Source: Promethearchaeota archaeon (lineage in GTDB: Archaea; Asgardarchaeota; Odinarchaeia; Odinarchaeales; JBHLKK01). From it: DNA of 11,592 bases. A model generated the notes under the pieces. The model saw nothing but the letters and a program-made list of their open reading frames with translations. It was not told where the DNA came from and searched no databases. The stretch lies in NCBI GenBank assembly GCA_048939465.1, contig JBHLPL010000062.1:1-11592 (forward strand), in the 5' to 3' direction. Below are positions 1-3,503 of the stretch, piece by piece; positions within the stretch are counted from its first letter, which is position 1, and each line of letters begins with the position of its first letter. Made by a program: the position numbers and the translations under genes.

Positions 1-957
1 AGACTCCAACGTGTGGCCTGTGTTGGCAAGTATCGCCCCATCCTTCATCAACTCCATATGCTCCTTACGAATGACATTCTTGTTTCCAGTAGCAGTCAGA
101 AATATGTCTCCGATTTTCGCAGCATCTTTCATCGACATGACTCGGTAGCCGTCCATTGTAGCTCTTAATGCCTTTGTAGGATCAACTTCAGTTACAACGA
201 CATGTGAGCCCATTCCTCTAGCTCTCATTGCAGCTCCCTTGCCGCAGTGTCCATACCCTGCCACCACGAAATTCTTACCTGCAAGGAGAATACTGGTAGC
301 ACGTAAAATGCCGTCAATAGAACTCTGACCGGTGCCGTAAATATTCTTTCGGAGCCTTGGAAACTCTCCAAGACTCAATCGAAATCCCACTTCGTTGGTG
401 CATCGTTGACAGCAACCATTGGATACTTCAGTGCCCCGTCTCGTGCCATAGCTCTCAATCGAATAACTCCCGTGGTGGTCTATACGTGGATAGAACATTG
501 TTCCATCCTCTTCGCAACCACCAACAATTTGGGATAAAAGCTCGGTTCGCTTCGAGTGTACAGCGTTTACCAGATCTCCCCCGTCATCCAAAGTTATTCT
601 AGGTTTATAGTTAAGCACATCATTCACGCTTTCATAATATTCCTCAGTGCTTTCACCTCGCCAAGCATAGACATTGGTACCTTCCAGCGCCAGCGCAGCT
701 GCAACATCGTCTTGCGTTGATAATGGATTCGAAGCGCATAATGCCACATCTGCCCCGCCGGACTTCAAAGTCTGAACTAACACAGCGGTTTCTTTAGTAA
801 CGTGCAGACAGGCGGATATCCGGATTCCTCTGAGGGGTTTCTCCCTTTCGAACCTTTCCTTGATTTTCGCCAGCACTGGCATGTGATGAGTTGCCCACCG
901 AATTCTTTCCCGACCCTGATCTGCTAGAGCCATATCCTTAACTTTATATTCCTTCAA
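1..957 (-). CDS. ahcY: Adenosylhomocysteinase (SAH hydrolase), intron-containing, 3' end runs off the window. Exons: 957..510, 481..378, 345..<1 (last exon may end at 13 if a third intron exists)
   Basis: My translation from TTG at 957 (GAGGTG RBS at 970-965) gives [69 protein letters not shown]. After removing the two inserts it continues [68 protein letters not shown], all hallmark AhcY motifs. It is absent from the ORF track because no stop lies within the window. Confidence 0.97.
346..377 (-). other. 32-nt BHB intron in ahcY (intron 2)
   Basis: Minus strand: TTCG-AT^T-GAGTCTTGGA-gagtt-TCCAAGGCTC-CGAA-AG^A. Central helix TTCG/CGAA is perfect, both bulges are 3 nt and the inner stem is 10 bp. 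Excision gives TTC GAT AAT ATT TAC GGC (FDNIYG). Confidence 0.93.
482..509 (-). other. 28-nt BHB intron in ahcY (intron 1)
   Basis: Minus strand: GGTGGTT-GCGA-AG^A-GGATGGAAC-aat-GTTCTATCC-ACGT-AT^A-GACCACC. Outer exon helix 7 bp, inner helix 9 bp, central helix 3 of 4 paired (A.A mismatch). Excision gives TGC GAA GAG ACC ACC ACG GGA (CEETTTG). Confidence 0.92.
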
Positions 958-1121
958 GAGGTTTCACCTCGGTTAGTCATATAGTTAGGCTTATACATAT
1001 GTTAACTTCATATATATCTTTGGTAAACAGATGTATATTGAAATATAATATTGTTCACAAACGGTTACCAACCATAAGTCCCAGTAGCATGGAAATCAAC
1101 CGAACAGTGGTGAGAGGGAAA
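958..1121. promoter_or_regulatory. Divergent ahcY / Lrp promoter region with RBSs and candidate operator palindromes
   Basis: AT-rich intergenic region. GAGGTG RBS for ahcY (970-965) and GGTGAGAGGG before ATG 1122. Palindrome TATATT-GA-AATATA at 1034-1047; inverted repeat TTGGTAA (1020-1026) / TTACCAA (1065-1071). Confidence 0.5.
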
Positions 1122-2087
1122 ATGAAAGGAGACGTCTTAGACGAGTATGATAAGAAGATCCTAAGTTTATTAGAGCGCGATTATCGAATATCGGCACTTG
1201 AAATATCAAGAAAAGTGAATCTATCTCGACTATCAGTCTCGCAAAGAATTCGAAAGTTAAAGAAGAGAGGGGTTATTCAGGGTTTTACTATTATCATTGA
1301 TCCAAATCTGGTGGGTTTAAAGAAAACAGTACTTGTATGGGTCAAAAGCAATCCACGGGAGCCTTGGCTTGTTGAGGAGTTGGAAAGGCTTCCAGAGTGT
1401 CAAGTCTCGGACGGCATCACAGGCGAATATGGGCTGCTGATGCTGTTTAAGTTTAGAGACGATTCACACTTCACAACAACCCTGCCTGAGATTGACAGTA
1501 TTCTCTCAAGAAGCGTTTTCAAAAAATACCGAATTACGGAAGCCATTAAAACGTACAAGGAATACGGAACGCCATTAATCCGCAAGAAAGAATACTCGAA
1601 CAAGAATATTAATTTAGATAACACAGACTATGAGATCTTAAGGATTCTCTCGTCTCAATGGACGAACAGGGTAAACCACATAACACTGGAAGAACTAAGA
1701 TCAGTATTGAAAAAGCGTCAGATTGCCGACGTTTCAAAGAGTGCAGTATACAAACGGTTGAAACAGTTGGAAGACTCAGGAGTAATACGACGTTTTTCAG
1801 CAGTTATCGATCAGGAAAAGGTGGGACTTAAACTGAAGTTTTATGTAAGAATTAAAGGCCGTCCTTCTGCTATCGACCAAGTTGTGCGACAGCATATTAT
1901 TCCGTCAAAAGAAGTAACAGATCTACACAGACTCGGTGAAGAGTACGGTTTGTTGGCAGGCATATCGGTAAGGGGGGTAAGCGAGTACAATAGCTTTGTC
2001 CGTAGATTATACAATATAGAAGAAATAATAGATACCAATACTATGCTGGTGCTCGAAAAACGGAAATATTCTCACACATATCCTTAA
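1122..2087 (+). CDS. Lrp/AsnC family transcriptional regulator with two tandem HTH+RAM units
   Basis: Two repeats of LDxxDxxILxxL..HTH..R(I/L)xxLxxxGVIxxF plus an effector-domain GEYGLL motif. I prefer the ATG at 1122 (RBS upstream) over the track start at 999, which falls in the divergent promoter. Confidence 0.9.
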   Translation: MKGDVLDEYDKKILSLLERDYRISALEISRKVNLSRLSVSQRIRKLKKRGVIQGFTIIIDPNLVGLKKTVLVWVKSNPREPWLVEELERLPECQVSDGITGEYGLLMLFKFRDDSHFTTTLPEIDSILSRSVFKKYRITEAIKTYKEYGTPLIRKKEYSNKNINLDNTDYEILRILSSQWTNRVNHITLEELRSVLKKRQIADVSKSAVYKRLKQLEDSGVIRRFSAVIDQEKVGLKLKFYVRIKGRPSAIDQVVRQHIIPSKEVTDLHRLGEEYGLLAGISVRGVSEYNSFVRRLYNIEEIIDTNTMLVLEKRKYSHTYP

Positions 2088-2105
2088 GAAGAGAATTATT
2101 ACTTC

Positions 2106-3503
2106 TTACTTTTCCAACCTACTAAGAATATCGTCTCTTACCTGTACGACTTCTTCCATGAGTTTATGTATATCAACTGTCTGCACTTCCCGGTTTTCAA
2201 CAATAACTTTTCCGTTAACTATGGTAGTCTCAACGTCCGATCCATGAACTGCATATGCCAAGTGACTGAATTCATCATATAATGGCGTTAAATGTGGTTT
2301 ATTAATATCAACGATTACGATATCTGCCTTTTTTCCAATTTCTAAGGAGCCAATCTCATTATCCCACAGCAAGGCTTTTGCCCCATCTATTGTTGCCATT
2401 CTTAAGGCGGTTTTAGCAGGTATGACTGTAGGATCAGAAGATACGCCCTTGTGGAGAAGAGCGGCCATCTTCATGGTTTCAAAAATATCCAAAGTATTGT
2501 TTGAACATGCACTGTCGGTCCCTAATCCGACGGTAATATTCGCATCAAGGAGTTTTGGCAACGGACTAATTCCAGACGCCAGCTTAAGGTTACTTACCGG
2601 GTTATGAGCTACTTTGATGTTCTTCTCAGACATTATTTGCATATCTCGCGATGTAAGAGATACACAATGAGCGGCCATTACGTCTGGGCCTAAAACGCCC
2701 AAACTGTTGAGATATTCGAATACACCCTGATCAAAATCAGCATCTTTTACATCTATTCCCATCTGATTCCAAGTCTTGACAGCGTCCTTTGCCTTCTGCA
2801 TTTCATCAGGAGTCTCCGCGGTGTGCACATGCCAGATAACCGGTGCACCTGGAGTACCGTGCTTTTTGTTAAGATCATCCTTTAAGATTTTTAGCTCTTG
2901 GAAGTATCCAGGATCTACGGTATAAACAGCGTGTGGATCAATACTAACCCGTATCAATCCGCCTTTCTTATCATGCCAGTTTTTCACCAACTCTCTGGTC
3001 GCTAACCTATCAGCCTCTTTTCTGAAAGAAAAACAAACATGGCCAACTATACCTCGAATACCTACCTCAGATATTGCCTCAGCTTCTTTATTCGTATAGT
3101 GGTACATTGTATCCAGACATGTGACCCCGGATAGAGCGCTTTCTACAGCTGCCAGCTTAGCGCCTACATATACGTCGTTCTCATTCAGCTTTGCCTCTAA
3201 AGGAAATATCCACTCGTTCAACCACTCATGCAATGGTAGATCGTCGGCATATCCACGTAGCAGAATCATGCCTCTGAGCGATCAGAGAGGTGTCATGGCT
3301 GCGTGGGTATGGCAGTTAATGAGAGAGGGCAAGATTAGCTTTCCTTTACTATCGATCTTCTCGTATCCTGGGTAGTTTCGCGTTAATTCAGACGGCCCCA
3401 CATCCACTATGCTGTCATTTTCTACGACTACTACTCCATTCTTGATGACAGCATTTTCTTTGTTCATAGTTATTACGGTTCCACCTTCGATAAGAAGGCC
3501 CAT
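2106..3503 (-). CDS. mtaD: 5'-methylthioadenosine/S-adenosylhomocysteine deaminase (amidohydrolase, MtaD/DadD-like), intron-containing. Exons 3503..3292 and 3264..2106, 456 aa after splicing
   Basis: The track ORFs 3282..3503 and 2106..3269 are in the same frame. The joined product has [63 protein letters not shown] and GSLEIGKKADIV. GAGGTG RBS upstream of 3503. Substrate is assigned by family plus the ahcY neighbourhood. Confidence 0.9.
3265..3291 (-). other. 27-nt BHB intron in mtaD containing an in-frame TGA
   Basis: Minus strand: CCACGCAG-C-CATG-AC^A-CCTCTCTGATCGCTCAGAGG-CATG-AT^T-CTGCTACGTGG. Central helix CATG/CATG, inner hairpin, and a strong exon-exon helix offset by one unpaired C. 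Excision gives GCC ATG ACT CTG CTA CGT GGA (AMTLLRG). Confidence 0.93.

Follow-up and report, generated by a model that had tools for sequence, protein, structure and literature searches.

Bulge-helix-bulge (BHB) introns within an archaeal coding sequence have been described in the cbf5 pre-mRNA of Crenarchaeota, where the intron is short (Watanabe 2002; Yoshinari 2006; Yokobori 2009, PMC2738675), and a 2025 paper on the structure of the tRNA-splicing endonuclease EndA cites only the cbf5 papers for mRNA substrates. In the present study we describe short inserts, predicted to be introns of this type, in two neighbouring genes of the 11,592-nt contig JBHLPL010000062.1 (hereafter the window, by which we mean the whole stretch of DNA analysed): ahcY, which encodes S-adenosylhomocysteine (SAH) hydrolase, and an mtaD-like gene for a deaminase of the TRZ/ATZ family. 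The window is contig C118 of a metagenome-assembled genome (MAG) of 1.96 Mb and 91% completeness (G000), whose organism appears to be an Asgard archaeon related to Odinarchaeia; the genome encodes a homologue of ESCRT-II Vps25 that is absent from all 14 control prokaryotes, and the organism is present in mangrove and sediment metagenomes. Two congeneric MAGs (G001 and G002) and a relative from the same order (G003) served for comparison. It is very probable, to judge from these comparisons, that the inserts are real and conserved BHB-type mRNA introns which belong to a genome-wide population of mini-introns, and not a device specific to the S-adenosylmethionine (SAM) cycle.

The inserts share with the cbf5 intron its short length, its BHB motif inside a coding sequence, the proposed removal by a tRNA-splicing endonuclease linked to two-subunit EndA with subsequent ligation, and a gain and loss that vary among related species. 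They differ from it in their hosts, which are ahcY and a TRZ/ATZ-family deaminase, and in their lineage, Asgard archaea instead of the Desulfurococcales and Sulfolobales; moreover, cbf5 has one intron in one gene, whereas here five introns fall in a single gene and many genes of one genome are hosts, with splicing predicted from sequence. An earlier note on this DNA, made from the letters alone, named no report of BHB introns in ahcY or mtaD and called for a literature check; in the full-text searches made here, archaeal coding-sequence BHB introns were reported only for cbf5, with its single intron. Closer in phylogeny are Atabeyarchaeia and Freyarchaeia, Asgard archaea whose tRNAs hold multiple non-canonical introns (PMC11291895; bioRxiv 10.64898/2026.10.13.758758). 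The tRNA introns of these two sources resemble ours in phylum, BHB geometry, heavy load and repeated gains, with two EndA paralogues in most of those genomes; however, as far as they were searched, the two papers deal with tRNA genes only and make no mention of mRNA introns, whereas the hosts here are protein-coding. A functional parallel is offered by the splicing of HAC1 and XBP1 mRNA by IRE1 and RtcB, which is likewise independent of the spliceosome, proceeds by cuts at stem-loops with RtcB-type ligation in metazoa, and changes the reading frame; but the eukaryotic system relies on an unrelated, stress-regulated endonuclease and a single intron, while the archaeal introns are multiple and are not known to be regulated. 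An mRNA is reportedly an EndA substrate in Haloferax volcanii as well, for which Schwarz et al. are said to have described in 2020 an EndA-dependent BHB site in the 5' untranslated region; that site reportedly interrupts no codon and restores no frame, in contrast to the present introns, which split codons.

The ahcY gene lies on the minus strand, and positions 957 to 1 of the window encode the first ~300 residues of the enzyme. Exon 1 (510..957, with a probable TTG start at 957) matches positions 1-147 of the NCBIfam ahcY model TIGR00936 and residues 25-176 of PDB 7r37, and exon 3 (13..345) matches model positions 183-293 and residues 205-318 of the same structure. Residues 154-203 of the unspliced read-through are unrelated to SAH hydrolases, and PDB matches cover only its residues 2-153 and 202-315. 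Excision of intron 1 (482..509, 28 nt, splitting EE|TTTG) and intron 2 (346..377, 32 nt, splitting FD|N) brings into frame the intervening exon 2 (378..481), which consists of 34 codons and a split codon and whose frame differs from that of exons 1 and 3. Positions 378-479 of this exon translate on the minus strand to [34 protein letters not shown] and match residues 169-202 of the S-inosylhomocysteine (SIH) hydrolase 7r3a (E = 2.8e-8), and the spliced protein can be aligned without a gap to solved SAH/SIH hydrolases. The unspliced frame deserves a separate remark: across the first three introns and the frame-shifted exon 2 (~350 codons) it meets no stop, the first one being in intron 4, so that no break is visible to open reading frame (ORF) callers. 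Introns 1 and 2 together measure 60 nt, and the same open unspliced frame exists in G001 and G002, probably by chance plus close kinship.

Where the earlier note had counted two introns in ahcY, the whole gene has five. Window bases 12-1 (1..12, minus strand) are the first 12 nt of a third intron, the rest of which lies on contig C24, across which the gene carries on; the overlap between C118 and C24 is 77 nt. Intron 3, which has an inner stem of 8 bp (GGCC AC|A ... GGUC AA|U), is 27 nt in full and splits GH|FNVE, while on C24 intron 4 (30 nt, CCGC AG|G ... GCGG AA|A) splits AAA|EGHP and intron 5 (22 nt, CCAG CG|U ... CUGG AA|A) splits PSE|VMDM. The fully spliced ORF has 421 codons and ends in a stop. 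Its exons after intron 3 align with the G005 orthologue up to residue 422, and the spliced product is collinear, in matches made exon by exon, with the adenosylhomocysteinase family (TIGR00936 / PF05221-type).

The second interrupted gene (3503..2106, minus strand) codes for an MtaD/DadD-type amidohydrolase that belongs to the TRZ/ATZ family. Exon 1 (3292..3503) comprises 70 codons and a split codon, ends in HTHAAM-T and can be aligned to the N-terminal part of the orthologues in G003-G006, which have no intron; exon 2 (2106..3264) matches Pfam Amidohydro_1 with E = 3e-52. Between them a 27-nt insert (3265..3291) with an in-frame TGA parts HTHAAMT from LLRG, and its excision restores the metal-binding motif [11 protein letters not shown]. 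Thus the three inserts of 27, 28 and 32 nt in ahcY and the mtaD-like gene are found where the earlier note had placed them, on the minus strand.

A common layout underlies the six introns of the two genes: four bases of the exon pair with four of the intron that lie close upstream of the 3' cut, each strand has a 3-nt bulge, and the interior forms a hairpin, which has 5-11 bp in the three introns of the window, the inner helix h' ranging from 4 to 11 bp over all six. The central helix has four of four pairs in five of the six (UUCG/CGAA, GGCC/GGUC, CCGC/GCGG, CCAG/CUGG and CAUG/CAUG). In ahcY intron 1 a 6-bp outer helix is followed by the bulges AG|A and AU|A and an 8-bp inner hairpin (fold z = -3.2); ahcY intron 2 combines the central helix UUCG/CGAA with the bulges AU|U and AG|A, a 9-11-bp inner hairpin and a 2-bp outer helix; and the mtaD-like intron has the central helix CAUG/CAUG, the bulges AC|A and AU|U and a 5-bp inner stem. 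With the cut placed behind the second base in both bulges, the motifs EETTTG, FDNIYG, GHFNVE, AAAEGHP, PSEVMDM and [11 protein letters not shown] are recovered exactly, so that the rule set out in the earlier note for three inserts holds in each of them and in three further ahcY introns (6/6). The background rate of such a BHB motif in G000 is ~2e-4 of (position, length) pairs (24,277 matches), and an exact-boundary fit in six of six inserts is therefore far beyond chance.

The machinery that such introns would require is encoded in the genome, which has two EndA paralogues, recognised by tRNA_int_endo on C90 (103 bits) and C139 (77 bits), and two RtcB genes. We propose that the inserts would act as archaeal BHB introns of mRNAs that code for protein. 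Once the gene has been transcribed, the tRNA-splicing endonuclease, which with two EndA paralogues would fit the (alpha-beta)2 type of broad specificity, would cut each 3-nt bulge behind its second base; the exons would then be joined by a ligase of the RtcB type, and the intron would probably be released as a small circle. In this mechanism only the spliced mRNA would encode an intact SAH (or S-inosylhomocysteine) hydrolase and the adjoining SAH/5'-methylthioadenosine (MTA)-type deaminase. The claim that neither enzyme could be made intact without precise excision is supported. One of the two RtcB genes, at G000:C31:2961-5708 (minus strand), has an open frame of 973 aa; its matches to Pfam RtcB positions 1-57 and 45-426 are separated by ~1.4 kb, which gives it the appearance of an intein-containing RtcB.

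Among the tRNA genes, which carry introns as well, 19 of the 24 detected in G000 are longer than 85 nt. In the window, tRNA-Leu(UAG) (5588..5692, plus strand; Rfam tRNA 55 bits with a 32-nt insertion) has a BHB-type intron of roughly 20 nt in its variable region and was found by ARAGORN solely after deleting 5642-5661. A multi-intron tRNA gene of ~114 nt at roughly 3949..4062 (minus strand; Rfam tRNA 22 bits) is of ambiguous identity, ARAGORN finding a tRNA of 69-70 nt only after the removal of 2-3 BHB candidates and with several ambiguous solutions. The two genes together hold at least three BHB-type introns; the count of six tRNA introns given for the window in the earlier note was not confirmed.

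All six introns of ahcY and the mtaD-like gene are present in both congeneric MAGs, with 28 nt for ahcY intron 1 in each, 32 nt for intron 2 in G002, and 27 nt with an in-frame stop for the mtaD-like intron in each. The spliced ahcY codons differ from those of G001 and G002 by 91 and 88 synonymous and by 24 and 31 non-synonymous changes, respectively, with zero gaps in the exons, and in exon 2 the three congeners show 12 synonymous differences to 1 conservative one in the spliced frame (counted by eye from the aligned sequences). Every one of the 3-4 ahcY indel columns among the three is intronic, intron 4 measuring 30, 30 and 32 nt and intron 5 measuring 22, 20 and 21 nt; such changes of length would wreck any read-through frame and can be tolerated only if excision takes place at the BHB sites. 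As far as codon comparison tells, the ahcY exons are under purifying selection only in the spliced frame. The introns themselves have ~7 substitutions in ~137 aligned non-gap columns, a rate below that of synonymous changes in the exons, which indicates structural constraint. Furthermore, contigs of four independent metagenome studies span all three introns of the window with no joints, and in one strain, ~5% divergent, the changes in the mtaD-like intron either are confined to the loop or make the canonical stem longer.

The distribution of introns over other genes was assessed by a homology census, in which the 1,842 ORFs of the whole G003 genome were aligned to G000, giving 1,138 orthologues and 329,561 aligned residues. 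An insert in G000 was counted if it had a BHB solution and either disrupted the frame or contained a stop; the ~13 introns of the census are a lower bound, as it misses introns shared with G003 unless a BHB is found in both genomes, very short exons, and in-frame introns free of stops. Besides ahcY and the mtaD-like gene, introns were located in gatA (C77:44560-44591, with Pfam Amidase contiguous across the junction, 104|106), kae1 (C69:30130-30154, with an 8-bp outer helix and Pfam TsaD 61|64) and gcvPA (C150:6525-6553, Pfam GDC-P 99|101), and as stop- or frame-breaking BHB inserts in the genes for a class-III aminotransferase (C4:11883-11912), a DRG GTPase (C113:448-471) and EF-2 (C68, about 10.9 kb). 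The kae1 and gcvPA introns are shared with G003 at homologous sites, where they measure 28 nt (~622.4-623.5 kb) and 29 nt (~827.0-828.4 kb), respectively; the sites are those of G000 and the hairpin sequences differ. No intron was seen in metK, either in G000 or in the loci of 30 relatives, and the mtaD-like intron was found in none of 27 other relatives' loci and is confined to this genus. An mre11 candidate has a second exon with no Pfam match. As a separate approach, a de novo genome scan combining a BHB descriptor, ORF joining and a codon-usage score was tried and abandoned, for at loose settings it returned 208 loci against 196 for a parallel-pairing decoy, with no separation; a modest excess over the decoy appears with an inner stem of at least 7 (32 vs 12) or at least 8 (15 vs 4).

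Within this population ahcY stands apart. It holds 5 of the ~13 census introns in 0.13% of the aligned residues (binomial by hand, P ~5e-12, subject to the biases of the census), and introns occur in ahcY at 9 of the 30 relatives' loci (G000-G002, G017, G037, G030, G040, G031 and G023) compared with 0/30 for SRP54 and 0/30 for metK. They occupy at least eight different positions, and for each insert in the six other Asgard genomes the canonical BHB layout has a single solution, which restores the motif. In four families the GHPSE|VMDMSF site (CCC AGY G|AG GTT) is interrupted at one and the same nucleotide, by introns of 22, 34, 34, 31 and 191 nt with unrelated interiors. The 191-nt intron belongs to a closed 3.6-Mb Asgard genome (G040:C1, ~1876.2-1876.4 kb) and has an 8-bp inner stem; an Rfam search of this locus gave no match. 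The presence of ahcY introns is polymorphic within genera (G030 vs G039; G040 vs G031) and within family f13 (G017 and G037 vs G027). Their sites lie in segments conserved above the average of the gene (0.84 vs 0.72, permutation P ~0.0015), a location at highly conserved codons that fits retention where only precise loss is viable. In a phylum-wide ahcY search of 301 genomes many had at least two matches, among the matches listed, and in genus g25 all six genomes have an ahcY match which is split or has an internal stop; split matches also arise from lineage-specific insertions or contig ends, and this search was not used for intron counts.

Several other explanations of the inserts have to be considered. 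A gene in decay would be expected to have frameshifts and an in-frame stop, and the MAG is fragmented, with a contig break within ahcY intron 3; hence the two genes might be taken for pseudogenes, or the inserts for assembly or sequencing artefacts. We find this hardly credible, given that four independent assemblies and two further MAGs contain identical or homologous inserts, that the exons have a synonymous to non-synonymous ratio of ~3-4 to 1 and no indels, that nothing but BHB cuts yields the complete ORF and that a single ahcY locus was detected in G000. The earlier note had asked for a comparison with related orthologues and for a check against artefact, and the presence of the inserts in four assemblies, taken with their conservation in both congeners, excludes assembly artefact and pseudogene for practical purposes. 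It is also very improbable that the inserts stay in the RNA and are skipped in translation by ribosomal bypassing or programmed frameshifting, since matching take-off and landing codons are lacking, six different inserts all conform to the BHB cut rule with single-nucleotide precision, tRNA introns of G000, in which translation has no part, have this geometry too, and intron length varies freely among congeners, even though hairpins in short untranslated gaps resemble the bypass element of T4 gene 60 and the unspliced ahcY frame is open through introns 1-3.

A different question is whether the introns serve a purpose. The earlier note saw in them a splicing-dependent SAH-recycling module, that is, introns placed specifically in two SAH-recycling genes so that methyl-cycle flux, through the removal of SAH, would be coupled to tRNA-splicing capacity. 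The interruption of both genes of the conserved ahcY-mtaD pair and the disproportionate share of introns in ahcY speak for such a role; however, the same intron type occurs in at least six unrelated housekeeping genes (gatA, kae1, gcvPA and those for EF-2, the DRG GTPase and the aminotransferase) and not in metK, the mtaD intron is limited to one genus, and the polymorphism of ahcY introns among close relatives argues against a fixed regulatory role. A pathway-specific module is thus not supported, and we consider it unlikely. The regulatory idea had been said to fail if introns were spread evenly over all conserved genes, and this largely proves to be the case, although ahcY still carries more than its share. 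The alternative offered in the earlier note, that the introns are selfish or neutral and are kept where codons are invariant, fits better than the module, in agreement with the conservation of the sites given above. Retention at conserved codons nevertheless does not explain the bias toward ahcY, for which any reason would be conjectural, and neither the regulatory nor the selfish or neutral reading accounts for ahcY as a strong recurrent hot spot.

The interpretation of the inserts as BHB introns spliced from mRNA also has points against it. The central helix of ahcY intron 1 (GCGA/ACGU) has three pairs and an A.A mismatch. The outer helix, 6 bp in that intron, has just 0-3 bp in the remaining ones, and in four of the six introns it is weak or absent; most of the introns would be relaxed motifs and not strict hBHBh' ones, and they would need an EndA of broad specificity. 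Since the MAG is 91% complete, there is some room for an intronless second copy of ahcY, and cleavage and ligation in vivo, together with their timing relative to translation, are deduced and not observed.

If the inserts are introns as proposed, a central metabolic enzyme is predicted to need five precise splicing events and its neighbour one, with at least six other housekeeping genes affected in the same genome. Confirmation on RNA would mean that gene callers systematically mis-annotate such genomes as holding broken or aberrant genes, the unspliced ahcY being one long wrong ORF, and that pathways may be wrongly recorded as missing when the metabolism of Asgard MAGs is reconstructed. The same ahcY codon, interrupted in four families, would then offer a tractable case for studying the gain, loss and inheritance of BHB introns among the closest relatives of eukaryotes. 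We suggest, tentatively and with doubts of our own, that mRNA splicing by EndA and RtcB could be a routine layer of expression in some Asgard archaea, with ahcY as a preferred and possibly ancient host. Were this true, either an mRNA intron would have been present before the Asgard classes diverged, or introns would be gained repeatedly by a mechanism specific to the site; in both cases the closest prokaryotic relatives of eukaryotes would possess protein genes with several introns, and splicing might to some degree control the capacity of the methyl cycle.

Two observations were made in the genes of the signal recognition particle pathway. FtsY-like matches with exactly one internal stop occur in many Asgard relatives (e.g. 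G000:C106:8900-9781, G001:C5, G010:C45 and G012:C67), and these single stops may represent further in-frame mini-introns or alignment run-over. The match to the SRP54 gene of G020:C144:40251-41622 is broken in two, and the interval exceeds what the query would explain by ~79 nt; this surplus could be an intron, whereas the other 30 loci are intronless.

As for the function of the gene pair, the placement of the deaminase in the TRZ/ATZ family is certain, and the NCBIfam models of this family are matched below their equivalog cut-offs, exon 2 alone scoring 363 vs 609 for PRK06038, 295 vs 522 for 5'-deoxyadenosine deaminase and 203 vs 779 for MTA/SAH deaminase. An SAH/MTA-type substrate is suggested by its conserved adjacency to ahcY and by the known route from SAH to SIH, in which SAH is converted to S-inosylhomocysteine and this to inosine and homocysteine (PMC10978960). 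The best structural matches of the ahcY product include the SIH hydrolase of M. jannaschii, and it is plausible that the pair serves this alternative route. The ahcY gene and the mtaD-like gene directly adjoin in the Asgard families f2, f8 and f15, and in this genus only they are separated by a tandem Lrp/AsnC-type regulator (999..2087, plus strand), which lies between both interrupted genes and matches Pfam HTH_24, HTH_AsnC-type and AsnC_trans_reg.

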